DNA from: Legionellales bacterium
GTDB lineage: Bacteria; Pseudomonadota; Gammaproteobacteria; UBA1113
Direction: 5' to 3'
NCBI GenBank assembly: GCA_013043985.1
Contig: JABEVJ010000261.1
Span: 1-34,278 of the forward strand
DNA length: 34,278 nucleotides
Of the stretch, positions 160 to 30,316 are shown one piece after another. Within the stretch, counting starts at the first letter, position 1. The number at the start of each line of letters is the position of its first letter. Under the pieces are notes generated by a model that was not told the origin of the DNA, ran no database searches, and was given only the letters and a program-made list of their open reading frames with translations. The translations under genes and the position numbers were made by a program.

Positions 160-282
160 TGTAGAAGATGTAGAAGGTTTGTAGAAAGAATGTAGAGGGG
201 AAGTAACCTGGGATAGTTTATTCAACAGATTGATTTAATTGTATTTTTTAAAACGAATCTACGTTTGTAGAAGATGTAGAAG
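160..282 (+). repeat. Iteron-like cluster A: six copies of TGTAGAAG or a one-mismatch variant
   Basis: Octamer starts at 160, 169, 180 (tgtagaaa), 191 (tgtagagg), 266 and 275. Spacing within subclusters is 9-11 bp. An AT-rich spacer (199-265) lies between them. All copies are in the same orientation. Confidence 0.8.
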
Positions 283-423
283 CTTTTTTTTGTTGAACTG
301 AATGAAACATTGGAAAAGTGCTGAAAACCTTGGAATTTCATCTGTCTATTGAGCCAATGCACGCGGGCTAATAGTGTTGACACTATGTCGAAGAGTAAAG
401 TATTAAGCAAAGGGGAAAATATC

Positions 424-915
424 ATGGCAAGTAAAATACTGATGAGTGCCTGTTTGTTGGGGGATAAAGTACGCTATGATGGAAACGATTGCTTGCAAAC
501 CCATGCTAAATTACAAGCCTGGATCAAAGCAGGCAAGGTTGTTTCTATTTGTCCCGAAATGGCAGGTGGTTTGCCCGTACCGAGGCCGCCAGCAGAAATT
601 GAACAGGACAAAACCGCGACCATGGTATTAGCCGGTGAGGCAAAAATACGCACGATCGGGGGAGAAGATGTCACGAAAGAATATATCACGGGAGCTCAAA
701 AAGCCTTGGCGCTCGTTAAACAGCATCATATTCAGGTGGCTATTTTGAAATCACGCAGCCCTTCCTGTGGGGTCAGACAAATCTATGATGGTACGTTTTC
801 GCATGGCTTGATAGCGGGTATGGGTCTGACCGCACAGCTTTTATCGGAGTATGGCGTGCAAGTTTTCGATGAAACAGAAATTGATCTCGCCCTGGAAACA
901 GCAGAAAAGACATGA
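424..915 (+). CDS. DUF523 (YbbK/TudS-like) family protein
   Basis: MASKILMSACLLGDKVRYDGNDC... is the typical DUF523 N-terminus. I chose the ATG at 424 because the RBS aagggga lies 6-7 nt upstream. The longer ORF from 349 overlaps the repeat region. Confidence 0.7.
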   Translation: MASKILMSACLLGDKVRYDGNDCLQTHAKLQAWIKAGKVVSICPEMAGGLPVPRPPAEIEQDKTATMVLAGEAKIRTIGGEDVTKEYITGAQKALALVKQHHIQVAILKSRSPSCGVRQIYDGTFSHGLIAGMGLTAQLLSEYGVQVFDETEIDLALETAEKT

Positions 916-1985
916 AAAACTCGACTCTCCTTATCCAGCCCTTATCGTTAGCTGAAGCGCAAAAAAAACGGGAAAACCAGCATACTTATACGGGTTGCAT
1001 TATTTTAACACATGATCACCGTATCCTGCTGCAATTACGCGATGCTGGATTTAAAAAATTTGCTTCTTGTATTTCTGCTTTCGGAGGTTGCATCGAGGAA
1101 GATGAAACCCCTGAGCAGACTATTTGTCGTGAGTTAAACGAGGAATTAGGGGCGAAAGTCGCTGCTTCAGAGCTTGTGTTTATCAGTGCCTATACCGAAG
1201 CGGTGACCCATTTTACCGATGTCATTTACGGTTATTTTTGGCATGACAAGCACAATACGATTACGGGTTGCTTTGAAGGAAGTCCGTTATATTGCTCGTC
1301 TGCTCAGGAGGCATTAAAACAACCTGATTTGATGGATGATGTGCGGTGGCTGCTTGAACAGTGCCAAGAGCAAAAATTGATTCGGGAGAGATTGGCACAT
1401 TCAGTGACACCCTCTTCATTGCAACCTATTGAGAGGGTTATAACCGATATTCATTCCATTGAAAAATTTTCCACTCACCGCCTGATTGCTCGTCGAATTG
1501 AATCAATGGATTTAGAGCTGTTGGCGGAAATGGACTCTCATCCCATGGTTATGGCCACCTTGGGTGGCGTTAAAACCAGAGAAGAAACCGAGGCTCGCTT
1601 GGCGTGGAACTTGAAACAGTGGGAAGATAATAGCCATGGTCTGTGGCTATTTTTTTTAAAAGAAACGGGCAAGTTTATTGGGCGAGCGAGCCTACGACGC
1701 ATGATTGTTGACGATAAAGACGAGCTTGAATTAGGTTATGCCCTGATGCCTGATTTTTGGGGTAAGGGTTTTGCGACTGAAATGGCTCAAGCCTGCATCG
1801 AGATTGCCTTTGATTATCTTGATTATGAAAATATTGCCTGCTTTACCGCGCTAACTAACGCTCCCTCACGCCGTGTGATGGAAAAATTGGGATTTCAGTA
1901 TGAAAAAAACTGCATGCATGCCAATACTCCCCATGTTCTTTATCGGTTGTGTAATCCAAAAAAAAACCTATCAAAAACCGAGTAA
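912..1985 (+). CDS. Nudix hydrolase fused to a GNAT (RimJ/RimL-like) acetyltransferase
   Basis: The Nudix box G-CIEED-E-TPEQTIC-RELNEELGA sits in the N-terminal half. The C-terminal half (LGYALMPDFWGKGFATEMAQACIEIAF...RRVMEKLGFQYE) is GNAT-like. The start overlaps the previous stop by 4 bp (ATGA). Confidence 0.75.
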   Translation: MKNSTLLIQPLSLAEAQKKRENQHTYTGCIILTHDHRILLQLRDAGFKKFASCISAFGGCIEEDETPEQTICRELNEELGAKVAASELVFISAYTEAVTHFTDVIYGYFWHDKHNTITGCFEGSPLYCSSAQEALKQPDLMDDVRWLLEQCQEQKLIRERLAHSVTPSSLQPIERVITDIHSIEKFSTHRLIARRIESMDLELLAEMDSHPMVMATLGGVKTREETEARLAWNLKQWEDNSHGLWLFFLKETGKFIGRASLRRMIVDDKDELELGYALMPDFWGKGFATEMAQACIEIAFDYLDYENIACFTALTNAPSRRVMEKLGFQYEKNCMHANTPHVLYRLCNPKKNLSKTE

Positions 1986-1988
1986 AAG

Positions 1989-2873
1989 ATGAATAACTCG
2001 ATCTCAGCATACAAACAGCATCTTAATCTTCAAAAAGCGACTTTTTCGCGTATCGACCATGACGATGCGATGGTTGCCATTGTTTATCACATTACCCAAC
2101 CAACGGGTGAGCAGTTTATTCTAAAAATATGTCCTCGCACTCAGGATTACTTACGTGAAGCGTATTTTTTGAAACACTTTGCGGGTCAATTACCCGTTCC
2201 ACGTATTATACAGCTTGTGGAACCAGAAGCAGACGTTGATGGTGCCATTCTCATGGAGTGCTTACAGGGAAAATTGCTGACGGAAAACGATGTTACCGAT
2301 ACCTTGGCTTATGAAATAGGGGTGCTTCTTGCCCGCATTCACCTCAATAGGACATCGGGTTACGGGGATTTAACGAAACCAGAGGATTTAAATCCTGCTC
2401 CGCGTTTTCATTTTACCTCAAAATTTGAAGAGGGTTTTGCAGAATGCAGTCATCATTTACCTAGTACACTGCTTGAGCAATGTCATCGTTATTATGATAC
2501 CAATATTGATTTTTTAACCAACGTTGATGGCTCCTGCATAATACACCGCGATTTTCGACCTGGAAACATAATAGTTCACAAGGGTAAAATCGAAGGAATC
2601 ATTGATTGGGCTTCAGGACGTGCGAGCTTTGCTGAGGAAGATTTTTGCCCTTTGGAGCACGGAGAATGGCCAATCCATCCGAGCAGTAAAAAATCTTTTT
2701 TAGCCGGATATGCCAGCGTTCGACCGCTCCCTGATTACCGTACCATTATGCCATTTTTGCGTATGAGCAGAGCATTTGCTACCATTGGTTTTACCGTCAA
2801 ATGCGAGACATGGCAAACCAAAAACTCGCGTGCTTATGAGTTTAACCGCCGATTTCTTGAAGCGTTTTTTTAG
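1989..2873 (+). CDS. APH-type phosphotransferase (aminoglycoside/choline-kinase fold)
   Basis: Catalytic loop IIHRDFRPGNIIV and the metal-binding segment IIDWASG are present. Length is 294 aa. Confidence 0.75.
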   Translation: MNNSISAYKQHLNLQKATFSRIDHDDAMVAIVYHITQPTGEQFILKICPRTQDYLREAYFLKHFAGQLPVPRIIQLVEPEADVDGAILMECLQGKLLTENDVTDTLAYEIGVLLARIHLNRTSGYGDLTKPEDLNPAPRFHFTSKFEEGFAECSHHLPSTLLEQCHRYYDTNIDFLTNVDGSCIIHRDFRPGNIIVHKGKIEGIIDWASGRASFAEEDFCPLEHGEWPIHPSSKKSFLAGYASVRPLPDYRTIMPFLRMSRAFATIGFTVKCETWQTKNSRAYEFNRRFLEAFF

Positions 2874-2882
2874 GAGGCTGAT

Positions 2883-3368
2883 ATGTCAGACAATAATAAT
2901 GAAACCATGGCTGATAAAACAGGAGCGGATAGTATTCAAATTGTGAAAGCATTAAGCCCCCGTGAATGGGAAGCAATCCGCCATTTTCGTCAATATTATT
3001 TTTTTGATAAAGCATCCATAATCGATCCTTACACCTGGACTTTCAATCATGAAAAACATGATCATCTTGTTCTGTATAAAGGATCATTGATGGTAGGGTA
3101 TGCTCATCTTCAATACTGGCCTGAATCAAGAGTGGCTTTAAGAATTATTGTGGTTGATGAGCCACATCGAAATCAGGGGTTAGGCTCTGAATTTTTGCAT
3201 CAAATTGAACTCTCGTTAAAAGAGCATGGGATTGAAAAAATACACGTCCAGTCATCACCGGAAGCCTATCAATTTTACTGCCAAAATAATTATATCGACA
3301 TGCCATTCAATGATCCGGATGGTTATGAGTCATGCTCTTCGGACATTGATATGGGTAAAATTTTATAA
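2883..3368 (+). CDS. GNAT family N-acetyltransferase
   Basis: Acetyl-CoA motif VVDEPHRNQGLGSEFL. RBS aggagg lies upstream of the ATG. Confidence 0.7.
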   Translation: MSDNNNETMADKTGADSIQIVKALSPREWEAIRHFRQYYFFDKASIIDPYTWTFNHEKHDHLVLYKGSLMVGYAHLQYWPESRVALRIIVVDEPHRNQGLGSEFLHQIELSLKEHGIEKIHVQSSPEAYQFYCQNNYIDMPFNDPDGYESCSSDIDMGKIL

Positions 3369-3409
3369 GGGCGTTTACTCTCCCATCGCTCACGGTTCTT
3401 TATCACTCA

Positions 3410-5179
3410 TTAGCCTGGAATAAAGCCGTTCTTCTGTTTTTGCCACAACTCGGTAAAATGCCCTTTTTTATCGAGCAGAGCTTGCATCGAGCCATCTTCG
3501 ATGATTTTTCCCTGCGAAAACACAAGAATCCTGTCCATATTCGCGAGCGTGGAAAGCCGATGGGCAATTACAATGGCAGTGGCGTCTTGCATGATGTGTT
3601 TTAAACTGTGTTGAATATTTTCCTCAGTCACTGAGTCCAAAGCAGCAGTGGCCTCGTCCAAAATCAGAATCGGTGCTTTTTTCAGAATAGCGCGGGCAAT
3701 AGCAATACGCTGACGCTGTCCGCCCGAGAGTTTGATTCCTCGCTCGCCCACCAAGGTATGATAATGTTGGGGGAGCGCACTGATGAATTCGTGACATTCG
3801 GCACGTTTTGAAGCCTCAATAACTTCTTCATCTGTTGCTGTCAGTTTACCGTAGCGAATATTTTCCATGAGTGAGCGGTGAAACAACATGGATTCCTGCG
3901 GGATCATAGCGATGGATTGTCGAAGCGAACCCTGAGTAACCTCAGCAATATTTTGACCATCAATATAAATTGATCCTGCTTGTAAATCATAAAAACGAAG
4001 CAGTAATTGAATAAAGGTAGTTTTTCCCGCACCGGAAAAGCCCACCAGCCCGATTTTTTCACCCGCTTTAATGCGCAGACTCAATCTTTGAAATAAGGGG
4101 CGTTCGGCATCGTAACCAAAAGTAATCCGGTCAAGCACAATCTCTGGCGTCTTAATAACCAAGGGAGGGGCATTTGGCGCGTCGAGAATATCGTGCCCTT
4201 CCAATAATTCCGAAAGCGCATTTTGTATTTTGCCGATTTCTCTCACACACTGACCAAATTGAAAGGCGCACCACCACACATACATGAGGGCACTGAAGGT
4301 TAACATCCCAACCAAAGTAAAATCACCCACCGTGATGTTTTTATGCTGCCAAGAGATTAATAAACCGCCAAACATCGCAATTAAGGCGATAATCGTGCTG
4401 ATGTCCTGAATCAAACGCACTTTTTCGAGTGAAAAAGCCGCATCCCACGCGCGCCTTTGCTCTATCATCTGATATTGATTCAAATAGTTTAATTCGTGAT
4501 TCATACTCGAAAAAATACGAATGGTTAAAATATTGTTGATGGCATCGGTAATCTTACCGCTTAACCGTGAGGTACTGTCAGCATGTTTCTCAGCAAAATG
4601 ATTGACTTTTTTCAAACTGAACAAGGTAATTGAAAAGTGTACAATGACCCACACGGCTAAAATACTGCTAAATAAAGGACTGGCCAAACTCAATAAAATA
4701 AAGACGTTCACTAAAAAAACGCCAGTAGAAATAAAATTGTAGATAAACATTTCAGAAATCATCTGGGCACCGCTGGCTAAATCGGCCACCTTACTTGCGA
4801 GGCTGCCTGAAAAGCGATCGCTGAAAAATTGATGGGAATGATGCCCCAGATATTGAAAGACATTTTCCCGAATGGTTGCGCGGAGCTTGGCAAAGCCCTT
4901 TCCAGCCAGCGCACCTTGAAAGCGAAGAGCAGTTGCCGTGAAAATCCAGCAACCTAACCATAGCAAAAGCGGCACGGAAAACGTGCGCCACAAATGCGGA
5001 ATCGGTGGTTTTAATGTGCTCATGCGATCAATGAACAGTTTGATAAAAAAAGGGTAAATCGTTTCATTGATCGCCCAAATCACGGCAACACTGGCCATCA
5101 GCACAAAAAACCAAGGCTGTTTTTTAGTGAAAAATGCCAGAAATGAAAGCGGTTTGCTGGGTAAGGACGGTGTTGGCAT
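3410..5179 (-). CDS. ABC exporter, fused permease and ATPase (MsbA/multidrug type)
   Basis: Six-TM N-terminal half. Walker A GFSGAGKTT, signature LSGGQRQRIAIARA, Walker B ILILDEATAALD. Confidence 0.9.
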   Translation of the reverse strand: MPTPSLPSKPLSFLAFFTKKQPWFFVLMASVAVIWAINETIYPFFIKLFIDRMSTLKPPIPHLWRTFSVPLLLWLGCWIFTATALRFQGALAGKGFAKLRATIRENVFQYLGHHSHQFFSDRFSGSLASKVADLASGAQMISEMFIYNFISTGVFLVNVFILLSLASPLFSSILAVWVIVHFSITLFSLKKVNHFAEKHADSTSRLSGKITDAINNILTIRIFSSMNHELNYLNQYQMIEQRRAWDAAFSLEKVRLIQDISTIIALIAMFGGLLISWQHKNITVGDFTLVGMLTFSALMYVWWCAFQFGQCVREIGKIQNALSELLEGHDILDAPNAPPLVIKTPEIVLDRITFGYDAERPLFQRLSLRIKAGEKIGLVGFSGAGKTTFIQLLLRFYDLQAGSIYIDGQNIAEVTQGSLRQSIAMIPQESMLFHRSLMENIRYGKLTATDEEVIEASKRAECHEFISALPQHYHTLVGERGIKLSGGQRQRIAIARAILKKAPILILDEATAALDSVTEENIQHSLKHIMQDATAIVIAHRLSTLANMDRILVFSQGKIIEDGSMQALLDKKGHFTELWQKQKNGFIPG

Positions 5180-5338
5180 GAGCGTTATTCGTATGAAGGT
5201 TAAAGACTTATTTTAGCATAATAAAAAAACAGCAACAATTCGGGTTACGTATTTCGTCAAAAAATAAAACAGACTATTGACAATACTCGAAAGAAGCTCC
5301 ACGCTTGTCCCTGTCAGCAAAAACGTACAGGGGGAAAG

Positions 5339-5799
5339 TTGCCAAATCATATTGAACATTATTATCAGATGGAAGATTTTTTCTTTAGTTTGATGAGCAA
5401 GCAACGACTTAACTTTGATGAGGGTTGCGCCTATGTGACGGGTGTGCAGGCAGAAAACTTGAATCCGCTGATGTTAAGGAACGGGGTGACACCTCGTCTT
5501 GGAGCAAGCTATCACCACACGAACATTTGTGCCACTTTAGCCTCTATATTGACAAAATTCCGGTAGCATCGCTGACCTTATCTATTGCAAATGGTTTAGC
5601 TCGCATTGATGATGTGGGAACATTGCCCGCCTATCAACGGCGAGGGTACGCGACGGACTTAATCCGCCATGCATTAACGCTTGCCTATCGGTTAGGCATA
5701 ACACATTGTTTTCTGGAGGCAAGCTTAAGTGGTCAAGTCGTCTATGAAAAAATAGGGTTTAACACGTTGTTTACCAGTGAAATTTATGTCAAAACCTGA
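5339..5799 (+). pseudogene. GNAT acetyltransferase interrupted by a single-nucleotide frameshift
   Basis: The N-terminal part is in the frame of ORF 5339..5566. The GNAT core (LPAYQRRGYATDLIRHAL...YEKIGF) is in the frame of ORF 5425..5799. The two frames overlap around 5470-5520, near a GGGG run at 5482-5485. Confidence 0.55.
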
Positions 5800-5849
5800 A
5801 ATAAAACGCTACGGGTAGCGATATGATTGTTTTAAGGAGGATCAAAACC

Positions 5850-6179
5850 ATGTTTGCTGTTATTTACAGAGGATTCATTTTACCAGAGCATGAGCAGGCC
5901 TATCGCCAAGCATGGAGGGAAATTGCTGATTATTTTGTTCAACATGCAGGGGCACTTGGCTCCACATTACATAAAACGCCAGCCGGAGAATACATTGCGT
6001 ATTCACGCTGGCCAGATAAAGCAACCCGTGATCGTTATTGGGATGAGCAAGGCAATTTGCAGACAGTAGCAGGATTAAATGAGACCATTGCCACGTTAAA
6101 AATGGCGATTGATCGCAATAAACCCTATGATGAAATTGCGATGGAAGTCGTGGATGAAACCGAGAAGAAAATACCCTAA
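5850..6179 (+). CDS. Antibiotic-biosynthesis-monooxygenase (ABM) domain protein
   Basis: MFAVIYRGFILPEHEQAYRQAWREIADYF...YSRW is typical of small ABM/ferredoxin-like-fold proteins. A strong RBS aaggagg lies 9 nt upstream of the ATG at 5850. Confidence 0.6.
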   Translation: MFAVIYRGFILPEHEQAYRQAWREIADYFVQHAGALGSTLHKTPAGEYIAYSRWPDKATRDRYWDEQGNLQTVAGLNETIATLKMAIDRNKPYDEIAMEVVDETEKKIP

Positions 6180-6233
6180 TATTTTAGGATATTTTAAATG
6201 AAACAAAGAAGATGAATAAAGGGGGAAAAATTA

Positions 6234-6788
6234 ATGAGCGAATATCAATATTATGAATTTTGTCGGATTGGCAGCCCGCTTTCTGCTGAAGCTCGGAAAA
6301 CAATGCAGTCACTTTCCAGTAGAGCAAAAGTCAGCACCCATGGTGCCTCTTATACCTATAATTATGGTGATTTTCGCGGCAAGCCTGCAGAGTTGGTTTT
6401 AAACTATTTTGATGTATTTTTTTATATCAGTAATTTTGGCACTCTTCGGCTGATATTTAAATACCCTGAAAATCAAATTACTGAAGAAGAGATAGAAAAA
6501 TACAGGATTAAACACGTCATCCACTATCAAAAGCATGAGCAGTATGGATTGCTGACTATTGATATTAATAATGAAGAGGGTTTTGGATGGACAGAGGGGG
6601 AAGGATTGCTGGCCGATTTATTGCCACTTTATGATGAAATAAAAGATAACCATTACCATTTTTTACAAGTCGTTTCGGCTGTTCATGATCATTTTATGGG
6701 AGAAAATTCAAACACACTAAGCAATTTACTGACCAAAAACACTTTATCATCAGCAGAAAAAACTTTTGTGGCATGTGTTGGTCTTTAA
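6234..6788 (+). CDS. Hypothetical protein
   Basis: Clean 184-aa ORF with RBS aggggga. I recognise no motif with confidence. Confidence 0.5.
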   Translation: MSEYQYYEFCRIGSPLSAEARKTMQSLSSRAKVSTHGASYTYNYGDFRGKPAELVLNYFDVFFYISNFGTLRLIFKYPENQITEEEIEKYRIKHVIHYQKHEQYGLLTIDINNEEGFGWTEGEGLLADLLPLYDEIKDNHYHFLQVVSAVHDHFMGENSNTLSNLLTKNTLSSAEKTFVACVGL

Positions 6789-6797
6789 TGAAAATCG

Positions 6798-7634
6798 ATG
6801 ACAACTAATACTTACAGTCATGAAATGCAGCAACAACTCAAAGAAAGCCTCGAATTATTGAAAATGATTTTAGGATCGGATCTTTTGGGTGTTTATCTTT
6901 ATGGTTCATCTCTTGTAGGCGGACTGCAAAAATACAGCGACATTGACTTATTCGTTGTTGTCAAACGCGCGACAACCCCAGAGGAAAAAACCAGATTAAT
7001 TGCTCATCTTCTTCCAATCTCGGGTATTTACATGAAAAGTTCAAAGCGGTCTATTGAAATGACCTTTGTTGAGAAGTCAGCGATTAATCCTTGGCATTAT
7101 CCTCCACACTGTGATTTTCAATATGGTGAGTGGTTACGCCAATCTTTTGAGAAAGGCATGCTTGACCTAGGGATGACTCATGAGATGCCAGATCTAGCGA
7201 TCATTGTTACTCAAATTTTATTAAAGTGTCAAATTCTACAGGGATTAGAGCCTGAGCAATTATTGGCGGATGTCCCCTATCATGATTTTACAAAAGCCAT
7301 GCATCATGATTTAAATAGACTGGTCACCGATCTTGAGCATGATACTCGAAATGTCCTGCTGACTTACGCACGAATTTGGAGTACCTTAGAAACCAATGCG
7401 ATAAGATCTAAACCTGTCGCAGCAGACTGGGTAATGTCTCATTTGCCTAAAGTGTATCAACCCGTGATGAAGCGAGCTAAATCAATCTGTATCGGTGTAG
7501 AAAATGAATATTGGGGTGATATCCAAGAGCTTGTAAAACCGTGTGCGGATTTTATGGCCAATAAAATCAATGAACAGTTTGCATTGATAAACGTTGATGA
7601 TCTTAATCAGGTTATAAAACTTGCCGAGCGGTAA
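6798..7634 (+). CDS. Aminoglycoside nucleotidyltransferase, aadA/ANT(3'')/ANT(9)-like
   Basis: N-terminal NTase motif LLGVYLYGSSLVGGLQKYSDIDLFVVV. C-terminal DUF4111-like helix region (LLTYARIWSTLETNAIRSKPVAADWV). The distance from the start to the motif matches AadA. Confidence 0.8.
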   Translation: MTTNTYSHEMQQQLKESLELLKMILGSDLLGVYLYGSSLVGGLQKYSDIDLFVVVKRATTPEEKTRLIAHLLPISGIYMKSSKRSIEMTFVEKSAINPWHYPPHCDFQYGEWLRQSFEKGMLDLGMTHEMPDLAIIVTQILLKCQILQGLEPEQLLADVPYHDFTKAMHHDLNRLVTDLEHDTRNVLLTYARIWSTLETNAIRSKPVAADWVMSHLPKVYQPVMKRAKSICIGVENEYWGDIQELVKPCADFMANKINEQFALINVDDLNQVIKLAER

Positions 7635-7656
7635 TTTTCGGTAGAGGGGTATTTTA

Positions 7657-8925
7657 ATGAAAATTAAGAAAACGATTCATGATGTCATCAATGGCTTGCT
7701 GCCAACCATGGAACCTAACGGTACTCTGCTTGTCGCTCTCAATGAGGAAATCATTTATAAACAATGTTTTGGTTTTGCCGATATGGCAAATAAAACACTT
7801 GTCACTTTCGATACTCAATTCCTGGCAGGTTCAGTGACCAAACAGTTTACGGCAGCAGCCATTCTAAAAGCATTGCTTGATATCAGCTTACAAAACGGAA
7901 TAGATAAAAATGATCTTGCCAATTTAAAAAACAACATCCAAGCCAAGTTAGCTCATGCTGTAGCTCATTATTTGCCACAGGAACATCCTCTCTGGGATGG
8001 TTTGATGCCATCATGGGCGAAGCGGGTGACTTTACACCAGCTATTAATACATTCATCCGGCATATCCAATTATACAGGGTTGCCCGATTTTGAAAACAAA
8101 GCGTTTCCCAAACCTTCTGATTTGGTTGATTTTTTTAAAACACATGATTTGGAGTTTAATTCAGGAGAAAAATTTTCGTACAGTAATTCAGGCTATTTTT
8201 TATTGGGAATAATTGCACAACAAATAACGCATCAGCCGCTGGAAAGTTATTTGCAAACTCAATTTTTTGCACCATTCAACATGCACGCCAGTTTTTTGGC
8301 CACGCAACATACCGCTAAAGAATTGAAACAGACCGACTCTCGCGCCGCAAACTTAGCCTGTGGCTATCAATTCGACATGACGAAACCACAGGCAAACTTA
8401 ATTGAGGTGAAAAACTCTATATCGATGCAAATCCCGGGAGCTGCGGGCAGTCTTGTGTCGACTGCTTCGGACTTACTTAAATGGAATAATGCGTTATATA
8501 CTGGAAAAATTATTCCACTATTTTTGCTTGATTTGATGCTGAAACCGCATATACAGACAGAACAAAAGAATGCCTATTATGGATATGGTATAGAGGTTTT
8601 GAAATCCGGTTCTTTTGGAGAGTATTATACGCACAGAGGAGGCATACCGGGTTTTCATTCAAAATTGACTTTCATTCCATCTTTACAGTTATCCATGATT
8701 GTTCTGGAAAATCTCCATGAAGACAAGAGCCGTTTGATGCCAGAGATAGAAAGGATGAGAGCGGCATTGCCAACGACATTGACTGAAAGTGAAAAATGGC
8801 AGGAAGTTGACAAAATGATAGCGGGTAAATATCCCAGTATCATTGAAAACAGGCAGCGGTATGAGCTTATGCTGGTGGAGGAAGCCATTATAGAGGCATT
8901 GTCAGTATTCGAAAACCGTATTTAA
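7657..8925 (+). CDS. Serine hydrolase of the beta-lactamase (class C/esterase) family
   Basis: SxxK motif SVTK and YxN motif YSN (YSNSGY). Length is 422 aa. Confidence 0.75.
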   Translation: MKIKKTIHDVINGLLPTMEPNGTLLVALNEEIIYKQCFGFADMANKTLVTFDTQFLAGSVTKQFTAAAILKALLDISLQNGIDKNDLANLKNNIQAKLAHAVAHYLPQEHPLWDGLMPSWAKRVTLHQLLIHSSGISNYTGLPDFENKAFPKPSDLVDFFKTHDLEFNSGEKFSYSNSGYFLLGIIAQQITHQPLESYLQTQFFAPFNMHASFLATQHTAKELKQTDSRAANLACGYQFDMTKPQANLIEVKNSISMQIPGAAGSLVSTASDLLKWNNALYTGKIIPLFLLDLMLKPHIQTEQKNAYYGYGIEVLKSGSFGEYYTHRGGIPGFHSKLTFIPSLQLSMIVLENLHEDKSRLMPEIERMRAALPTTLTESEKWQEVDKMIAGKYPSIIENRQRYELMLVEEAIIEALSVFENRI

Positions 8926-8962
8926 CCAATAAAGATTGAGTTCCACATTAAGAGAAAATTGG

Positions 8963-9742: not shown

Positions 9743-9760
9743 ATTGACCTTGCCAGAAAA

Positions 9761-11206
9761 ATGGAGCTGTCTATGTTAAACCCCTTTTACCCCAGCAAAA
9801 AATTGAATGAATTCATCATTGCTTACGTCAATACAAAAAATGAGGTAGAAAAAAACAAATTATGGGATGAAATCAATACTCCACTAATTGAGGACATTCC
9901 CGATGACCGTACGCATCAATACGTCACATTTCTTTATCGCTTTGAAGATATAAATTCTGCAAAAACCCCGGTGACTTATCTGTATAGTAGCATTCTCGAA
10001 CTACCGTTTTCAAAAGATAGCCAATTTATCCCCATCCCTGAAACCGATATAGGCTATTTAACCCTGAAATTGCCGAATACACTGCGAGCAGCTTACAATA
10101 TTGTGACGGTGGATATTGATTTACCGGGTGACGAGGCTCTTGACGCTATCAGCCCCATTGGGCAATCACCAATATTACCGAAATTTACAGGTGAAGTGAA
10201 TAAAGCCAATGCAAAACTTATGTTTTTGTACGAAGCCAAAAAATTGGGACTTGACCCTAAAAATAAATTAAAAGCCTATGATATCAATGGTGCTGATGAG
10301 TATATTGAAATGGAGTCTGTTTTTGAACTATCGATGGCACCAAAAGATAATTTTTCTCCTTCCACCATCGAGCAAGTCAAAGCAGAACGTGATTTATTGC
10401 GAAAAAATGGCCGTTTTATAGAATGCGATCTTGATTTTTCAGATACCTGCCTGAAAAACCTGGATGATTATAAAAATGAAAACTCAGATTCGCTTACAAA
10501 ATCCACCCGAAAATATTGGATTTACCTACCGCCTGAGTATGAAAAAGCGACTGAAGCAGAATACCCTTTTATCCTTTTTCTGGATGGAAGCTCCTATTTA
10601 AATGCCATTCCGGCTCCTTCTATTCTGGAGCGAATGATGACAGAGAAAATGATTCCACCCACTATTGCCGTTTTTTTTGAATATTCAATGACTGATCGTT
10701 TTAGCGAATATTATTGCCATGATCAATTTACTGAATTTTTGGCCAATGAATTTGTACCCTTGTTACGCCATAAAAAGCACCTAAAAATAGCCAACAGCCC
10801 CGCATTATCAACGATTGTCGGTTTGAGTGCCAGTGGATTGGCTGCCTTTTATGCAGGGCTTCGTTACCCCACTCTATTTGGAAATGTGATCGCACAATCC
10901 GCTTCTTTTTGGGCAAAAAAACAAACTGAACTTGAGGACATAATTTTTGAAAATAGCCTCAAAATTAACGCCTCTTTCTTTAACCTTGAGGCAGGCTCCT
11001 ATGAAAACACGCCTACGGAGTATCAATTTCCTGACGATGCAAAAGAAAACCTTTCTTTACTGCAAGCAGTTAAAAATGTACATAATTCTCTCAATAAACA
11101 AGGTATTCCGGTTGTCTTCCATGAATTTGTGGGTGGGCATAATTACCTCTGCTGGAAGACGTCCTTATCCACACGATTAAAAGAGGTGTACCATCATAGG
11201 AAATGA
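9761..11206 (+). CDS. Alpha/beta-hydrolase esterase, enterochelin-esterase (Fes)-like architecture
   Basis: YWIYLPPEY...YPFILFLDG, and a nucleophile elbow GLSASG. There is a long N-terminal domain as in Fes-type esterases. An alternative start at 9773 has a better GGAG RBS. Confidence 0.65.
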   Translation: MELSMLNPFYPSKKLNEFIIAYVNTKNEVEKNKLWDEINTPLIEDIPDDRTHQYVTFLYRFEDINSAKTPVTYLYSSILELPFSKDSQFIPIPETDIGYLTLKLPNTLRAAYNIVTVDIDLPGDEALDAISPIGQSPILPKFTGEVNKANAKLMFLYEAKKLGLDPKNKLKAYDINGADEYIEMESVFELSMAPKDNFSPSTIEQVKAERDLLRKNGRFIECDLDFSDTCLKNLDDYKNENSDSLTKSTRKYWIYLPPEYEKATEAEYPFILFLDGSSYLNAIPAPSILERMMTEKMIPPTIAVFFEYSMTDRFSEYYCHDQFTEFLANEFVPLLRHKKHLKIANSPALSTIVGLSASGLAAFYAGLRYPTLFGNVIAQSASFWAKKQTELEDIIFENSLKINASFFNLEAGSYENTPTEYQFPDDAKENLSLLQAVKNVHNSLNKQGIPVVFHEFVGGHNYLCWKTSLSTRLKEVYHHRK

Positions 11207-11219
11207 CGAAATAAACCCA

Positions 11220-11531
11220 TTAAACTTTCAGATTAAATCCGGTTAATCCCTCATATCCCCCTTCGGCAATACGGATGATTTCCTCTTTAGCAGGGTGTGT
11301 TACCGCATCATGGAAGAAAGTATCCAGTGTGGCTTCATTTTCAAAATCAATGAAAAAAACATGGGTAAATCGCCTGTTTGCGCTTTCTTCGTGAAACTCG
11401 CATTCGCCGCCCAAAAAACTGATAATTCCGGGTAATTTGTTTTTAAGCGCAATAAAATGAGCGATTGCCATTTCTATGGCCTGCTTGGTGACACTGGGCT
11501 TTACTTTGAATAGGATGGTGTGTCTTATCAT
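11220..11531 (-). CDS. Dabb (stress-responsive alpha/beta-barrel) domain protein
   Basis: MIRHTILFKVKP... spans 103 aa with the typical Dabb layout. It lies convergent with the esterase gene. Confidence 0.6.
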   Translation of the reverse strand: MIRHTILFKVKPSVTKQAIEMAIAHFIALKNKLPGIISFLGGECEFHEESANRRFTHVFFIDFENEATLDTFFHDAVTHPAKEEIIRIAEGGYEGLTGFNLKV

Positions 11532-11550
11532 GGTTGTTACCTCACGTTAA

Positions 11551-11736
11551 TTAATACAAACCGCACGGAGCGGGTCTGGGAGTAAGAATACGAAAACGCT
11601 GCGAAGGGTCAGGCAATGTATTTTCTCTTTCCTTTACCAATATTTTTGAACAACTCTCAATCGGCGCAGGTTGAAAAAAACAGTGACGATTTACTTCGTC
11701 CTCTCTGTAGTAACACATCTTTTTCATATCGCTCAT
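11551..11736 (-). CDS. Small hypothetical protein (61 aa), uncertain
   Basis: It sits 20 nt upstream of the Dabb gene and divergent from the LysR gene. No recognisable motif. Confidence 0.3.
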   Translation of the reverse strand: MSDMKKMCYYREDEVNRHCFFQPAPIESCSKILVKERENTLPDPSQRFRILTPRPAPCGLY

Positions 11737-11797
11737 ATACGGTTACCGCCTTTCGTTTCTCTTCCCCTTATTGTATATTAATTGTATAATGAATGAA

Positions 11798-11812
11798 ATT
11801 CATGCCATGAAT
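11798..11812. promoter_or_regulatory. Perfect 15-bp palindrome ATTCATG-C-CATGAAT containing a T-N11-A LysR-type box
   Basis: It lies in the 98-bp divergent intergenic region between 11736 and 11835. TATAAT at 11785-11790 lies just upstream on the + strand. Confidence 0.55.
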
Positions 11813-11834
11813 AATCATTATTGAGAAAATTCAT

Positions 11835-12746
11835 ATGTTAAATATCAACTTTAATCTTTTAAAGGCACTGGATGCGTTGCTTTCAGAGCAGAATGTATCA
11901 AAAGCAGGGGATAAAGTAGGTGTCACACAATCTGCTATGAGCGTTTCCTTGAATCAACTCAGAAAAATGTATCGCGATGATTTACTGGTCAGGGGCGTGC
12001 AGGGTCGTATGAGCCTGACTGTTTTTGCCGAAGCATTAAGGCAACCTGTTCAAGAGGCCATGCGTCAAATGGAAACCGTGTTTATTGCCCATACGCCTTT
12101 TGAGCCAATTCATAGTACCCGAACGTTTCATATTGGCATGTCGGATTATATTGCCTTTGTATTGTTACCCAACCTAATGAGAATAGTGGGCACTGTTGCG
12201 CCCAATATTAAGATTATGCAACATGCCGTCAACCACCTTGACAGCTTAAGGCCGTTTGAGGAAACCCAACTGGATGTGGTGTTGGGCGATTTTCGCTCTG
12301 TACCCAGCAGCTTGAAAACAACGCGTTTATTTACCGATGACAGTGTGATTGTAGCCGATAAAAAACATCCTGCCTTTGCCAAAAAGACATTCAGTGTCGA
12401 AAAAATGCTGACTTACCCGCAAGTGTTTGTTGCGCTGGAAAGCCAACCAGAGGACAATTTTATTGTTGAAATGCTCAAAAAAAACGGGCATAGCGTCAAA
12501 ATGAGTCTGATGACTCCTCATACTTTGATAGCATTGCAAACATTGCCTAACACCTTACTCATGACCAATACGGTCAAAAAACTGGCTGAACCTTTTCTTG
12601 AACCATTAGGGTTAGTGATGCGTGAAACACCCTATAAACTGCGAAATTACCATGCTAATATGTATTGGCATGCCAGAATGCAGAATGACCCGGCGCATAG
12701 CTGGTTACGGGAACTCATCAAAAATGCCACAGGTCGGCTGGAATGA
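11835..12746 (+). CDS. LysR-family transcriptional regulator
   Basis: N-terminal wHTH LLKALDALLSEQNVSKAGDKVGVTQSAMSVSLNQLR plus a substrate-binding-domain-sized C-terminus. Confidence 0.9.
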   Translation: MLNINFNLLKALDALLSEQNVSKAGDKVGVTQSAMSVSLNQLRKMYRDDLLVRGVQGRMSLTVFAEALRQPVQEAMRQMETVFIAHTPFEPIHSTRTFHIGMSDYIAFVLLPNLMRIVGTVAPNIKIMQHAVNHLDSLRPFEETQLDVVLGDFRSVPSSLKTTRLFTDDSVIVADKKHPAFAKKTFSVEKMLTYPQVFVALESQPEDNFIVEMLKKNGHSVKMSLMTPHTLIALQTLPNTLLMTNTVKKLAEPFLEPLGLVMRETPYKLRNYHANMYWHARMQNDPAHSWLRELIKNATGRLE

Positions 12747-12777
12747 ATAGCAGCTTACCTCTACGCGGATAATCAAA

Positions 12778-14619
12778 ATGACAAATGAAATTCAAATCGA
12801 TGTTGCTCTCGTGCAGCAACTGATCGTTGCGCAATTCCCACAGTGGGCTGATCTTCTCATCAAACCCGTTGAATTTGGTGGCTGTGACAATAGAACTTTC
12901 CGTCTGGGGCGTGAAATGTCGATAAGATTACCCAGTGCTGAAGAATATGTAAGGCAGGTGAAAAAAGAACAAGAATGGCTACCCAAGATCGCACCGCACT
13001 TACCACTTCCTATTCCGCAGCCTCTTGCCATGGGGATGCCTTCAGAAGACTATCCCTGGCATTGGTCAATATATAAATGGCTGGAGGGAGAGAGTGCAAA
13101 TAGTCTTGAGCTTGATGATGCATATTTGGAGATAATCGCGGTGCAGCTTTCGCAATTCTTGCGTGCGTTTCATCAATTTGATGCTGCTGGTGCTCCCGCT
13201 CCGGGGCTTCATAACTGGTGGCGAGCGGCTCATACATCTGTTTATGATGCCGAGACAAGGTCGCTTATCGAAACACTCAAAGATTTTATTGATGTTGATA
13301 ACGCAATATCCCTTTGGCAAAGAGCCATAAACTCTCAATGGGATAGCGAACCTGTGTGGGTTCATGGAGATGTTGCCAGCGGTAATCTCTTGGTGAAAGA
13401 TAATAGACTTGCTGCTGTTATTGACTTTGGTTGTATGGGAATTGGTGATCCAGCCTGTGACCTAACAATAGCCTGGACATTTTTTAGGGGTGAAAGTAGA
13501 AATATCTTTAAGGCAAATTTACATTTTGATGAGGAGACTTGGGCAAGGGCACGCGGCTGGGCGATGTGGAAGGCACTCTATGAGATTTCTGAACTTGAAG
13601 AGAAGAGTGGCACAGAACTAGCGAAGCAAATGCAGATTATTGATGCGGTTATCGAGGAGGATCGGGCTACTCGACGAGGTCATAGTAAGGACGATGATCA
13701 TCCGCTTGGCCTGCCAATCGAATATCAACAAATGCCTGAATATTTCGATGCAAGTAATGTTAATGAAGAGACTGAAGCTAAAAATGCGGTAATACATAGA
13801 CTGTTAAAAGAGCAAAAAGTTAGAACGGTTTTGGATATGACCTGTGGCACGGGCTCACAAGTGTTTTACCTTGTTGAGCGGGGATATGAAGTCATTGGTA
13901 ATGATTTCAGTCCTGCTTTAATTGATATAGCACGAGATAAAGCAAAAAAAATGAATCGTAATATTACTTTCATTAAGGGTGATATGCGTCATGTCAAAAT
14001 AGGCAAATTCGATGCAGTTATCAGTATTTTTAACGCCATTGGACACCTAACCAAAGCAGATTTTGAAGTTGCGGTAAAAAATATATGCGTTAATTTGAAA
14101 GATAACGGCGTATATATTTGGTTCTTCCGGAATTGCCGTGGTGCTTCAAATTCCCCTTCAGCTTTACTTTCGTTATCTATTTGAATTTGAATAACATTCG
14201 TTGAATCGGCATGGTCGTTTTCTGGACAAACCACGGCAATTCCGGAAGAGCCATATATTTTTGATATTTATAACCTACAGGCCATTACTGATGAAACTAT
14301 TGATGATTTTGTGACGAACGTTGAAAGCGTTGTTAATGGTGTCACTATCCATAGTATGCAACATTCTGAGATTGACAGAGAGAAAGGTCTTCTCATCTCT
14401 CATGATCAATATACGATTTTCAAAGATAGATGTGAGCCGGAAATGCACACCAATAGTTTCAGTCTGCAAATTTATACTGCTGAAGAATTACAGGCAATAC
14501 TGAGCGAAAACGAGTTTGAAATAGTCGGCCAATATGACATGGATGGAAATTGTTTTATTGCGGATAAGAGCCTTAATATTCTAACCGTAGCCAGGAAAAA
14601 AAAGCATGTTAAATGCTAA
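12778..14619 (+). pseudogene. APH-type kinase fused to a class I SAM methyltransferase, split by a 133-bp insertion
   Basis: APH motifs WVHGDVASGNLLV and VIDFGCMGIGDPACDL. Methyltransferase motif I VLDMTCGTGSQ. Removing 14120..14260 joins ...DNGVYI to FDIYNLQAITDE... in frame with ORF 14311..14619. Confidence 0.8.
14120..14252. mobile_element. MITE-like non-autonomous element with 22-bp terminal inverted repeats and an 8-bp target duplication
   Basis: Left IR GGTTCTTCCGGAATTGCCGTGG (14120-14141) matches right IR CCACGGCAATTCCGGAAGAGCC (14231-14252) at 21/22. The flanking direct repeat ATATATTT lies at 14112-14119 and 14253-14260. There is no internal ORF. Confidence 0.8.
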
Positions 14620-14648
14620 TAGAGGTCAAAAACTGAGAAAGAATAGAA

Positions 14649-15452
14649 ATGAGCAACTTTAAGCCTTACCTTGTCAAATGGCATCTCAAACCGGATGGCG
14701 AACCAATGACAATGCCCAGCAGTGAGCTGCTGCCCGTGCGTTATCAAGGCAAGCCTGCTATGTTGAAAATGGCTAACACAGAAGAGGAGCAAAGAGGCTT
14801 TGCGCTTTTATTGTTCAGGCAAGGGCTTGGTGCAGTGCCGATATTTGAGCATGAGGATAAGGTAATTTTAATGGAGCGGGCGATAGGAAACCGCTCGCTT
14901 GTCAGCATGGCAACAGAAGGGCAGGACAGCGAAGCCACGCGCATTATCTGTGAAGTGACGAATAAAATACATCAATTACAAATCAAGCCTTTTCCCTCTG
15001 AACTAGTACCTCTCAATATCTGGTTCAGGGCGTTGGAGCCGGTGGCAAAGCAGCGGGGCGGCTTATTTCAGAAAGCCCTGTTATTATCAAAGGAACTGTT
15101 AAATACGCCGCAGGAAGTCGCTGCCTTACACGGTGATATTCATCACGGCAATATTCTGGATTTTGGCGAGCATGGCTGGCGGATTATCGATCCAAAAGGA
15201 CTCGTGGGTGAACGCACATTTGATTTTGCGAATATTTTGTGCAATCCTACTCTTGAAATCGCTACCAAACTGCATCGATTGGAAGAGCAGGCATTGCTCA
15301 TCGCGCAGCTGGCAGAGGTTGATTATATCCGTTTATTGAAATGGGTGTTGGCGTATTCAGCACTGTCAGCCTCATGGCATCTTGAAGACGGCACGAATCC
15401 TGAGCTGGCACTCAGGGTCGCCACAATAGCTCATCAGCTGTTACGTCATTAA
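14649..15452 (+). CDS. APH(6)/StrB-like aminoglycoside (streptomycin-type) phosphotransferase
   Basis: LHGDIHHGNIL, IDPKGLVGERTFDFANIL and AYSALSASW parallel the StrB motifs LHGDLHHENI, IDPVGLVGE and AYGCLSAAW. Confidence 0.75.
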   Translation: MSNFKPYLVKWHLKPDGEPMTMPSSELLPVRYQGKPAMLKMANTEEEQRGFALLLFRQGLGAVPIFEHEDKVILMERAIGNRSLVSMATEGQDSEATRIICEVTNKIHQLQIKPFPSELVPLNIWFRALEPVAKQRGGLFQKALLLSKELLNTPQEVAALHGDIHHGNILDFGEHGWRIIDPKGLVGERTFDFANILCNPTLEIATKLHRLEEQALLIAQLAEVDYIRLLKWVLAYSALSASWHLEDGTNPELALRVATIAHQLLRH

Positions 15453-15477
15453 TGAACAGAGAAAGGTGATAAAAAAT

Positions 15478-16107
15478 ATGTCCATCTTATCCTGGTTAAC
15501 AGCCAAGTATTACGACAAAATCATGCAGGATGCCGAAACGAAAGGGCTGAAAGAGTGGCGAACGCAATTATTACGTCACGCCACGGGAACGGTACTGGAA
15601 ATTGGAGCGGGCACGGGAAGTAATCTTGAGTGTTATCCGCAGACGATAAAAAAACTGGTGCTGCTCGAACCTAGCCCGCACATGCGACAGCAATTAACGT
15701 TAAAATTATCAGCGAATAACGCATACCCTATTGAATTGTTGGACGGAAAAGCCGAATCTATTCCATTTCCAGATGCTACTTTCGATGCGATTGTTTGTAC
15801 ACTGGTTCTGTGCTCTGTCAAAAACATGGGCAAAGCACTCTCAGAACTGCATCGAGTGCTTGCTCCCGAAGGAAAATTGATTTTTATTGAGCATGTTGCT
15901 GCAGCCAAGCATACAACTCGATTCAAATGGCAAAAAATGGTTGAACCCGTCTGGAAAAGGATGGCATCAGGGTGTCATGTCACCCGTCAAACGGAAGCCG
16001 CGTTGGTTCAGGCAGGTTTCATGATTGAAGACATTGCTCGGCAAAGTATGCGCGGTGTTCCTTCTCTGGTTCGTCCTACCATCCGAGGGATTGCCATAAA
16101 ATGTTAA
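15478..16107 (+). CDS. Class I SAM-dependent methyltransferase (Methyltransf_11 type)
   Basis: Motif I VLEIGAGTGSN and post-I LVLLEPS. The ATG is at 15478; a GTG at 15466 is also possible. Confidence 0.75.
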   Translation: MSILSWLTAKYYDKIMQDAETKGLKEWRTQLLRHATGTVLEIGAGTGSNLECYPQTIKKLVLLEPSPHMRQQLTLKLSANNAYPIELLDGKAESIPFPDATFDAIVCTLVLCSVKNMGKALSELHRVLAPEGKLIFIEHVAAAKHTTRFKWQKMVEPVWKRMASGCHVTRQTEAALVQAGFMIEDIARQSMRGVPSLVRPTIRGIAIKC

Positions 16108-16129
16108 CCTTTAATATATTGCCAATCGT

Positions 16130-17302
16130 ATGCTTTTAGTCGCGGTCATTTTGATGGATCTCTTGGCGGGCATTGAGTTTGATTTATTCGTGCCGAGTTT
16201 TCCTGCCCTGCAAAGCCAGTTCGGTCTGTCGCCTTTTTGGGTAGAAGCGTTATTGTCAGTCAATTTCATCGGTTATTGTCTGAGTCTGTTTTTTGTGGGC
16301 GGGTTGGCCGATAGGTATGGACGTAAACCGATTATTTTGCTGGGGCTAGGCATGTTTACCCTCGGCAGTTTGCTTTGCCCCTGGGCGACGTCCTATTCCT
16401 TTCTTTTTATGGGGCGATTTCTTCAAGGGGTAGGTATTGCGGCTCCCGCGATCTTAAGTTTTTTAATCATTGCCGACGCCTATCCGCTTAAAAAACAGCA
16501 GTATTTGATGGCGATGCTCAATGGTTTAATGAATGTTTCTGTTGGTTTTGCCCCTGTGGTTGGCAGCTATGTCGCCCTGTATTTTCACTGGCAGGGCAAC
16601 TTTATGGCACTGCTGTTGTTAGGGGTACTGGTTTTGGTGATGACGGCCTGTTTTATTCCACACTATCCCTTGCCAGAAAAAAAAGAAACGCTCTCATGGC
16701 GTGGATATGTTCCACTCTTTCAATCAAAACCGTTGATGCTGTTGATGTCACATTTTGTGTTGATGTGCATTCCCTATTGGATTTTTGTGGGTATGTCGCC
16801 TTTACTGTACATGAAAAGCTTAAGGGTGAGTCTTGCTCATTTTGGGTATTATCAGGGCATACTGGCTTTGGTCTTTGGCCTGGGAAGTTTAGGTTTTGGC
16901 TTGATTATCCATCAGTTTGAACAGAAAAAAATACTCTATTTCGCCAGTCAAATCTTTATTGTCAGTTTGATCACCATTGGGTTCACGACGTTGTTCGACA
17001 GCCATAATCCACTCCTGATTACACTCGCCCTGCTTCCTTTTATTATCGGTCAGATTATTCCGTCTAATATTTTGTATCCTTTGTCCCTGAACATCCTGCC
17101 TGAGGCCAAAGGAAAAGTATCGGCGGTGATTCAAGGCTCTCGGCTTCTGTTGACAGCTCTTTCGCTTCAGCTGGCAGGTTATTTTTATAGTGGCTCCTTT
17201 CAATCGATTGGGGTGCTTATCCTCGGTTTTATTTTGATGGCACTGATGACGCTCTTTCTCGTCATCAAAAATCGTGAGTTGATGATGTTAATCAGCCGTT
17301 AA
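16130..17302 (+). CDS. MFS drug-efflux-type transporter (Bcr/CflA-like)
   Basis: About 12 predicted TM segments. MFS motif A GGLADRYGRKPIILLG. Confidence 0.8.
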   Translation: MLLVAVILMDLLAGIEFDLFVPSFPALQSQFGLSPFWVEALLSVNFIGYCLSLFFVGGLADRYGRKPIILLGLGMFTLGSLLCPWATSYSFLFMGRFLQGVGIAAPAILSFLIIADAYPLKKQQYLMAMLNGLMNVSVGFAPVVGSYVALYFHWQGNFMALLLLGVLVLVMTACFIPHYPLPEKKETLSWRGYVPLFQSKPLMLLMSHFVLMCIPYWIFVGMSPLLYMKSLRVSLAHFGYYQGILALVFGLGSLGFGLIIHQFEQKKILYFASQIFIVSLITIGFTTLFDSHNPLLITLALLPFIIGQIIPSNILYPLSLNILPEAKGKVSAVIQGSRLLLTALSLQLAGYFYSGSFQSIGVLILGFILMALMTLFLVIKNRELMMLISR

Positions 17303-17318
17303 AGAATAAACCCGCTCG

Positions 17319-17449
17319 TGTAGAAGCCTGTAGAAGGAAAAACACGGGTTGTAGAAAAAGGCATTGGCTCGTTTATTTTTATTTATTGTTATTTTTCATG
17401 CAGTTACAATAGCGAGGCAAATTTTGTAGAAGTTGTAGAAATGTAGAAA
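17319..17449 (+). repeat. Iteron-like cluster B: six copies of TGTAGAAG or TGTAGAAA
   Basis: Octamer starts at 17319, 17329, 17350, 17425, 17434 and 17442. An AT-rich spacer (17365-17400) lies between subclusters. It shares GTTACAATA (17403-17411) with the region upstream of cluster A (95-103). An 8-bp IR flanks it: aaacccgc at 17308-17315 and gcgggttt at 17459-17466. Confidence 0.8.
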
Positions 17450-29112: not shown

Positions 29113-29128
29113 TGAATCAATACTCCAA

Positions 29129-30047: not shown

Positions 30048-30059
30048 AAACGCGCCTCG

Positions 30060-30297: not shown

Positions 30298-30316
30298 AAA
30301 GAAAAATGAGCGTAAA

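Follow-up and report, generated by a model that had tools for sequence, protein, structure and literature searches.

Two repeat clusters of a Legionellales contig, one of them beside a DUF3987 helicase gene, as candidate helicase-binding iterons

In the Staphylococcus aureus pathogenicity islands (SaPI) and the phage-inducible chromosomal islands (PICI), the origin of replication (ori) is located immediately 3' of the rep gene, an AT-rich stretch is enclosed by two sets of short repeats, and the repeat is specific to the protein of the given element; the SaPI ori is reportedly the subject of a 2007 PNAS article by Ubeda et al. For the alpha protein of phage P4, the octamer TGTTCACC is repeated in two separated sites, ori and crr, both of which are required for replication. 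The origins served by the large T antigen of SV40 and by papillomavirus E1, helicases of superfamily 3 (SF3) from eukaryotic viruses, contain short repeats by an AT-rich or easily melted region, on which the hexameric helicase is assembled. In the parC/ParR system of plasmid R1 and the stbDRs/StbA system of plasmid R388, the operon promoter (par or stb) has arrays of direct repeats around it. The subject of the present analysis is a 34,278-nt contig of a Legionellales bacterium (JABEVJ010000261.1; the entire contig is hereinafter the window) that carries two clusters of a short direct repeat, A and B, the second of which abuts the 3' end of a gene of the DUF3987 (YfjI) family. We interpret the clusters as cognate binding iterons of the DUF3987 helicase that, by analogy with the rep-ori pair of SaPI/PICI and the alpha-ori pair of P4, would form an origin-like loading site, a reading to which we assign a probability of about 0.55.

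The two clusters, with the genes that adjoin cluster B, are laid out as follows.

160-198, plus strand: first (distal-type) set of cluster A, with TGTAGAAG, TGTAGAAG, TGTAGAAA and TGTAGAGG at 160, 169, 180 and 191
199-265, no strand: spacer of cluster A, 67 nt, 72% AT, unrelated to the spacer of cluster B
266-282, plus strand: second (proximal-type) set of cluster A, TGTAGAAG a TGTAGAAG, with copies at 266 and 275 (spacing 9)
16130-17302, plus strand: major facilitator superfamily (MFS) transporter gene, its stop 16 nt before the start of cluster B
17319-17357, plus strand: distal set of cluster B, with TGTAGAAG, TGTAGAAG and TGTAGAAA at 17319, 17329 and 17350
17358-17424, no strand: spacer of cluster B, 67 nt, 70% AT, a candidate unwinding region
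17425-17449, plus strand: proximal triplet of cluster B, TGTAGAAG t TGTAGAAA TGTAGAAA, with copies at 17425, 17434 and 17442 (spacing 9 and 8)
17472-18968, minus strand: DUF3987/YfjI-family gene, 498 amino acids, stop codon at 17472-17474, Pfam PF13148 (E 5e-94)
17475-17681, minus strand: part of the DUF3987 gene that encodes the predicted winged helix (codons 430-498), modeled by AlphaFold2 as three helices with a beta hairpin at pLDDT 80-90

In its exact form, TGTAGAAG occurs seven times in the window, always on the plus strand, compared with 0.71 expected copies, and none of 100 dinucleotide-preserving shuffles attained this number. The degenerate form TGTAGA[AG][AG] has 13 copies, 12 of which fall into the two same-strand clusters, with the sole other one at 7496. 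The family of one-mismatch variants is not enriched across the window (24 found, 21 expected), so that the signal is the clustering itself. The start-to-start spacings are 9, 11, 11, 75 and 9 nt in cluster A and 10, 21, 75, 9 and 8 nt in cluster B; the spacer measures exactly 67 nt in both, and the distance from the first repeat of the first set to the first repeat of the second set is 106 nt in both. An AT content of at least 70%, which both spacers reach, is found in just 4.9% of the 67-nt windows of the contig. The clustering of the octamer that had been noticed in the original prediction is thus real, and the common layout it described turned out to be closer than claimed. That prediction also pointed to a GTTACAATA motif near each cluster, and there are indeed exactly two copies of this motif, at 92 and 17403, compared with 0.22 expected, but their places are not equivalent, one lying about 60 nt to the left of cluster A and the other within the spacer of cluster B.

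The end of cluster B is separated from the stop codon of the DUF3987 gene by 22 nt, exactly as first reported, and the cluster is wedged between two convergent 3' ends, that of the MFS gene on the plus strand and that of the DUF3987 gene on the minus strand. No promoter-like site was found in cluster A or cluster B, which, together with the location of B between convergent gene ends, makes it unlikely that the clusters are ordinary promoter operators.

In nucleotide comparison against plasmids, the window matches Legionella plasmids only, and all 25 plasmid records that match YfjI/DUF3987 likewise come from Legionella. Twenty-one related loci were screened for two or three hexamers of the form [TG]C[TG]AC[AGT], spaced by 8-9 nt, at most 45 nt after the stop codon of the DUF3987 gene. 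Such a site is present in 13 of the 21 loci, against a background of 0.086 per 60 nt, and the heptamer arrays in these loci begin 1-23 nt past the DUF3987/YfjI stop codon, the proximal triplet being the part whose position is conserved across the family. The genes that flank DUF3987 differ in every locus, which leaves DUF3987 as the sole constant neighbor of the site. In the whole 50-kb plasmid of L. oakridgensis and over 50 kb of that of L. antarctica, the heptamer clusters nowhere but at this site. A BLAST comparison of clusters A and B with plasmids yielded no match, and a metagenome scan for the full architecture yielded no further relatives.

The word TTCTACA, as read in the direction of the gene, is common to the window and its two closest relatives. 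Of the DUF3987 proteins, the nearest, P0002 (83% identity), is encoded in the ENA contig L124, where the stop codon is followed by three repeats, a 67-nt AT-rich spacer and two repeats (spacings of 10, 75, 9 and 8 nt), and the next closest (P0003, 71% identity) in locus L298, with spacings of 9, 11, 75, 9 and 8 nt. The orthologous spacers of cluster B, L124 and L298 show a weak but significant identity of 43-46%, that is, in these closest relatives the layout is kept while the spacer sequence drifts. The nucleotide homology between L124 and the window (73-77%) begins at position 17422, with the proximal repeats, and spans the DUF3987 gene, the gene of the single-stranded DNA-binding protein (SSB) and the methylase gene, whereas on the cargo side of the site there is a PAS histidine kinase in L124 and the MFS gene in the window. 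Hence, the site is the last conserved feature of the backbone before the variable cargo.

In more distant relatives, with 50-60% protein identity, the word changes. Arrays of two or three copies of TGCTACA start 1-22 nt after the stop codon in L130, L307, L308 and L309 and in the plasmids of L. fallonii (L294), L. antarctica (L295) and L. lytica (L305); in the three plasmids, a second direct set follows after about 110-130 nt. The plasmids of L. oakridgensis (L132) and L. pneumophila D-4040 (L133) carry three copies of TGCGACA and, after a spacer of 35-37 nt, three inverted copies, which amounts to a 3 + 3 palindrome. Three copies of GCGACA, with no second set seen, are present in the L. pneumophila fraseri plasmid (L304), which is grouped with the TGCGACA loci. 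A second set beyond an AT-rich spacer is thus recurrent, direct in L294, L295 and L305 and inverted in L132 and L133, and the three heptamer types follow the lineages of the DUF3987 proteins. These observations lend support to the proposed link between the repeats and DUF3987 and to the reading of the repeats as replication iterons, both of which had been put forward from the window sequence.

Domain search of the 498-residue protein detects DUF3987 only and no primase domain; the protein also matches a PHROG family annotated as 'DNA helicase' (E 5e-58). DUF3987 is a helicase family of the MCM-like superfamily 6 (SF6) with a winged helix-turn-helix at the C-terminus (PMC4889955); Kazlauskas et al. 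placed it among the MCM-related SF6 helicases and predicted a role in the replication of mobile elements (PMC5862659), and a PriCT-DUF3987 protein has been demonstrated to be an ATP-dependent 5'-3' helicase (PMC11724360). Its predicted winged helix, residues 430-498, is a candidate sequence-reading domain. Between the window protein and its relatives, the identity of the N-terminal and C-terminal parts is 83 and 73%, 72 and 54%, and 52 and 35%, respectively, so that the C-terminal domain diverges faster than the rest. Position 5 of the recognition helix is K, D or N across the three heptamer groups, which is suggestive of a specificity code.

Phased repeats around an AT-rich stretch, the position behind a helicase gene, the lineage-specific word and the lack of a promoter role fit an initiator-adjacent iteron origin or helicase-loading site. 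Linkage and the predicted winged helix point to the DUF3987 protein as the probable binding partner, and the analogy with the systems outlined above suggests an origin function. The helicase encoded at 17472-18968 would then bind, through its C-terminal winged-helix domain, to the repeats of each cluster, and cluster B, which consists of the post-stop heptamer triplet, the 67-bp AT-rich stretch and the distal set, would be the cognate cis site of this protein. Helicase subunits would gather on both repeat sets, after which the intervening AT-rich DNA would be melted or entered by them. Such a site could act as an origin-like helicase-loading site, that is, as a secondary replicon or replication-restart module of the plasmid.

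As in SaPI and PICI, cluster B lies directly 3' of a predicted initiator-helicase gene and has a set of short repeats on either side of an AT-rich stretch; the repeat word varies with the protein lineage, which may point to a protein-specific repeat as in those islands. Unlike SaPI, in which Rep belongs to a different helicase family, modules of the window type reside in the backbones of conjugative plasmids that encode their own Rep proteins, and the window has a second site 17 kb away. A further link to phage satellites is that DUF3987 profiles are used to locate the 'primase' gene of the phage-inducible chromosomal minimalist islands (PICMI) (PMC10803314).

The resemblance to P4 consists in the repetition of an octamer or heptamer in two separated clusters and in the nature of the proposed binder, a helicase with a C-terminal DNA-binding domain; in addition, the P4-like island CP4-57 of E. 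coli carries intA, alpA and yfjI, so DUF3987 genes do occur in such islands. The bipartite, P4-like ori-crr arrangement envisaged in the original prediction is, however, not borne out, because the L. oakridgensis plasmid, the 50 kb of the L. antarctica plasmid and the other loci contain a single site, next to the gene. Also unlike in P4, the helicase gene of the window is not situated between the two sites, the 17 kb between them are filled with cargo, and the protein, with PF13148 as its only domain and no primase domain, is not a homolog of alpha. The 3 + 3 inverted layout in L132 and L133 recalls the palindromic viral origins on which two hexamers assemble head-to-head; the repeats in the window, in contrast, are all direct, and the viral helicases belong to SF3.

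Several observations weigh against this interpretation. The site is missing in 8 of the 21 related loci (L125 and L299 are counted among these, though they are unclear; L127 has instead six repeats of another word phased by 21 nt), so that those plasmids can do without it; in E. coli K-12, too, no triplet is seen behind yfjI. Related plasmids encode separate initiators of the Rep_3/RepA type, so that the site need not be the main oriV, and, given both the separate rep genes and the eight relatives without the site, it may serve a secondary or accessory replication function rather than that of the main origin. Neither cluster was found to contain a DnaA box or to have one nearby. AlphaFold2 models the helicase core of the DUF3987 protein with low confidence, and a Foldseek search against the PDB produced no significant match, the best hits (E 0.15) being weak local matches to winged helices; a sequence search against the PDB gave no match either. 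The correspondence between the recognition helix and the heptamer is not clean because L304, which carries a word of the TGCGACA type, has a helix like that of the TGCTACA group, and with this exception we do not claim a recognition code. Finally, no relative possesses a second cluster, which leaves the role of cluster A devoid of comparative support.

A second copy of the site across the cargo block is unusual, and the two-cluster arrangement is seen in the window contig only: neither the whole L. oakridgensis plasmid, nor 50 kb of the L. antarctica plasmid, nor any of the other loci has one. Linkage to a DUF3987 gene holds for cluster B but not for cluster A, beside which no remnant of such a gene was found. 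Cluster A has the same word, strand, spacer length and set distance as cluster B but its second set is without the third repeat that is present in B, L124 and L298. The spacers of A and B are 37% identical, the level of shuffled sequence, and A is therefore not a recent duplicate of B; the preservation of the repeats and of the 67-nt length next to an unrelated spacer argues for selection for protein binding over a recent copy. The idea that the clusters are duplicated boundary modules is accordingly upheld in part: cluster B does lie at a boundary, with homology to L124 starting at 17422 and a different cargo side, but A does not look like a simple duplicate of B. Most likely, the DUF3987 protein would also bind cluster A, which would then serve as an auxiliary or second loading site that has been preserved beyond the variable cargo block; alternatively, the cluster might have been brought along with a piece of DNA from a different element that has the same specificity. 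The sequence fits either history, that is, an old second site retained by selection for binding and geometry, or arrival with the DNA of another such element, for example by recombination between two sites of this kind, in which case the inserted segment would be flanked on either side by a direct copy.

The left neighborhood of cluster A and the interval between the clusters contain the following features.

1-13, minus strand: leftward gene truncated by the contig end, about four codons (ATG ATT GAG AAA ...), with a GGAG-type ribosome-binding site at about 20-30; by direct reading of the sequence, it appears to be the neighbor of cluster A on the non-cargo side
349-17302, plus strand: cargo block between clusters A and B, with GNAT acetyltransferases and APH and ANT enzymes, the ATG of the first gene at 424
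349-17302, further genes of the cargo block: a beta-lactamase-family protein, an esterase, methyltransferases, a LysR regulator, an ABC exporter (minus strand) and an MFS transporter

In locus L123, which comes from the independent Logan assembly of the run SRR9677582, the sequence breaks off at about position 70 of the window, and the window contig itself ends 160 nt to the left of cluster A; that both assemblies stop just left of this cluster suggests a repeat or strain variation there.

Among the competing explanations, one that appears unlikely, though not outlandish, is that the clusters are recombination or junction sites, so that the cargo would have been captured by site-specific or homology-driven recombination, with A and B as the junctions of an inserted 17-kb segment. 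The clusters are directly oriented and bracket the cargo, and the site is the last backbone feature in common with L124 before the cargo diverges. Moreover, four pLPP-type plasmids that lack the heptamer site (L001, 10641-10692; L296, L297 and L303) have a cargo gene of the pyridoxamine-phosphate oxidase family starting 13-100 nt after the yfjI stop codon, and a cargo gene with a tRNA_edit domain starts within the same range in L301, also without the site; the 3' flank of yfjI is therefore a recurrent point of cargo insertion. The window encodes two integrase-like proteins (26928-28639), and a doublet of a similar word lies about 45 nt 3' of a tRNA-Asn gene, a typical island junction, in two Legionella genomes that are described below. 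Nevertheless, integrase arm-type or att junctions were rejected because both copies are complete, with two sets and a spacer, rather than half-sites, the spacers have no common core sequence, and the window contains no tRNA. Nor is any recombinase a constant neighbor of the site in relatives, none of which has the second copy, and recombination leaves unexplained why, in 13 loci, arrays with words that vary by lineage come behind the stop codon of the helicase gene. As an account of how cluster A came to its place, recombination is compatible with the helicase-loading interpretation. An extension of the latter, in which two direct helicase-loading sites make the 17-kb cargo a unit of its own, through local over-replication or looping-out driven by DUF3987 initiation at both ends, or in which recombination between two origins of the same specificity regularly serves Legionella-type plasmids to capture cargo next to yfjI, strikes us as distinctly improbable.

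Equally doubtful as capture by recombination is the possibility that the protein bound at the clusters is not DUF3987 but some other, small DNA-binding protein of the plasmid or the host, for which they would act as operators or roadblocks; a global repressor of the plasmid or a nucleoid protein by which the cargo is insulated or silenced would be examples. Helically phased short direct repeats are typical of OmpR/PhoB-type, ribbon-helix-helix and StbA-like regulators, cluster A is located between the leftward gene and the first cargo gene, and the tRNA-Asn doublets in Legionella chromosomes could hint at a host factor. However, the word varies among plasmids of the same host genus, which argues against such a factor, the site has no consistent linkage to any other gene, and the lack of promoter-like sites together with the convergent gene ends around B, discussed above, is hard to reconcile with a regulatory role. 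In L307, about 45 nt separate the DUF3987 start codon from an upstream doublet, TGCTACAttcTGCTACA at 9941-9957, which has the same TGCTACA word as the post-stop triplet, resembles an operator and hints at autoregulation by the same protein.

Highly unlikely, and less probable than the preceding readings, is a function of the clusters as partition centromeres, that is, two phased sets of direct repeats bound by an adaptor of the ParR, StbA or ParB kind, as in parC of R1. Like parC and stbDRs, each cluster consists of two sets of direct repeats with a spacing of about one helical turn and a spacer between the sets, and the window encodes KfrA (30380-31150). In three relatives (L125, L130 and L309; 56-61% identity), a noncoding region of about 1.2 kb comes between the DUF3987 gene and a ParA gene that has a partner gene; in L125 and L130, the two loci inspected for this, the region is full of phased repeats. 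A partition site had also been suggested on first inspection of the window, but this suggestion is not supported: there is no ParA, ParM or ParB gene in the window, and, unlike parC and stbDRs, cluster B lies between gene ends and has no promoter in its spacer. Furthermore, the site of the L. oakridgensis plasmid is about 30 kb away from the par genes, and the repeats upstream of ParA in L130 (TAATCAT) differ from the TGCTACA triplet that follows DUF3987 in the same locus.

The noncoding stretches themselves occupy 1930-3000 in L130, 12050-12600 in L125 and 11540-12800 in L309; in L130, a short WGR gene comes between the DUF3987 gene and the noncoding stretch. The partner gene of ParA encodes 398-434 amino acids, and ParA has an N-terminal helix-turn-helix in L130 and L125. 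The short repeats that precede ParA, often 11 nt apart, TAATCAT in L130 and GATTACTAAT in L125, are unlike the post-stop triplet and are probably par operators or centromeres. Transposon ends, lastly, are excluded because all 12 repeats are direct, on the plus strand, rather than inverted.

YfjI/DUF3987 is a standard backbone gene of Legionella plasmids, for which no role is described; YfjI appears in neither title nor abstract of the 10 papers listed among the 31 that mention it. Elements of this kind are already known, but their association with the DUF3987/YfjI genes of Legionella-type plasmids appears to be undescribed in the accessible literature. The lineage-specific array behind the gene provides a concrete, testable pairing of a protein with a site, suggests a second, helicase-based replication or loading function in Legionella plasmids, and marks the spot where resistance-like cargo is inserted. 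If the helicase-loading interpretation is correct, it would yield a simple rule for locating, in plasmids, islands and satellites alike, the cis sites that belong to DUF3987 helicases.

The same word is encountered in other genomes. A genome-wide scan for the doublet gave, among the matches listed, mostly chance occurrences, with two informative loci in Legionella metagenome-assembled genomes (L075, 3027-3044, minus strand; L107, 4832-4850, minus strand), where ATGTAGAAGCAATGTAGAA[GA] is repeated with an 11-nt period about 45 nt 3' of tRNA-Asn(GTT). Both doublets are downstream of an aminotransferase gene, in flanks that are otherwise dissimilar. The next genes in L075 are phage- or satellite-like (a small terminase of the Sf6 type), and no DUF3987-like gene was seen in L075 or L107; the doublets were considered as sites of a DUF3987-like protein, and this was rejected because the neighboring 319-residue open reading frame (ORF) of L075 is not DUF3987-like.

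Scanning of viral contigs for three repeats returned at least 120 stretches, which, like many of the metagenome matches, were assumed to be mostly tandem coding repeats. The metagenome scan for the full architecture brought up a family of human-gut phage contigs (GC content about 32%) with about 10 direct TGTAGAAR repeats in the order 3 + 4 + spacer + 3, followed by a GC hairpin (L281, 4829-4977; also L256, L257, L264-L266, L271, L274, L275, L277, L280, L283 and L285). The array is intergenic, between a module with a ClpP-type prohead protease and the gene of a 1064-residue DnaG-type primase. This family was tried and dismissed as a set of relatives because it shares no protein with the window and its primase is not DUF3987-like; it is treated as unrelated or convergent, and the array is possibly a phage origin that has arrived at the same word by convergence. 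In the metagenome contigs L276 (6561-6861) and L289 (3412-3502), three direct repeats of the TGTAGAAG type are followed by three inverted ones (TTCTACA, TCTACA), and the unit recurs about 210 nt later in L276; this looks like another iteron system with the same word.

The window has no Rfam match. Past the DUF3987 gene, there are two GNAT genes, the SSB gene and an orphan N6 DNA methylase, and farther on, the two integrase-like genes of the PF12834/PF12835 families, a 1.7-kb stretch without long ORFs, KfrA and Ada. The 1.7-kb stretch (28640-30380), which adjoins the integrase-like genes and has no ORFs of at least 80 amino acids, contains a near-perfect 22-nt palindrome at 29956-30002 and is a candidate oriT/oriV or regulatory region. 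A pair of direct repeats of about 95 nt (30231-30326 and 34055-34148; 73-77% identical), 3.8 kb apart, brackets the KfrA, Ada, phosphoenolpyruvate (PEP)-mutase-family and 182-residue protein genes. Within the cargo block, a 29-nt inverted repeat (14114-14142 and 14230-14258), with 93% complementary arms 87 nt apart, is located at the 3' end of a gene that encodes an APH-methyltransferase fusion.

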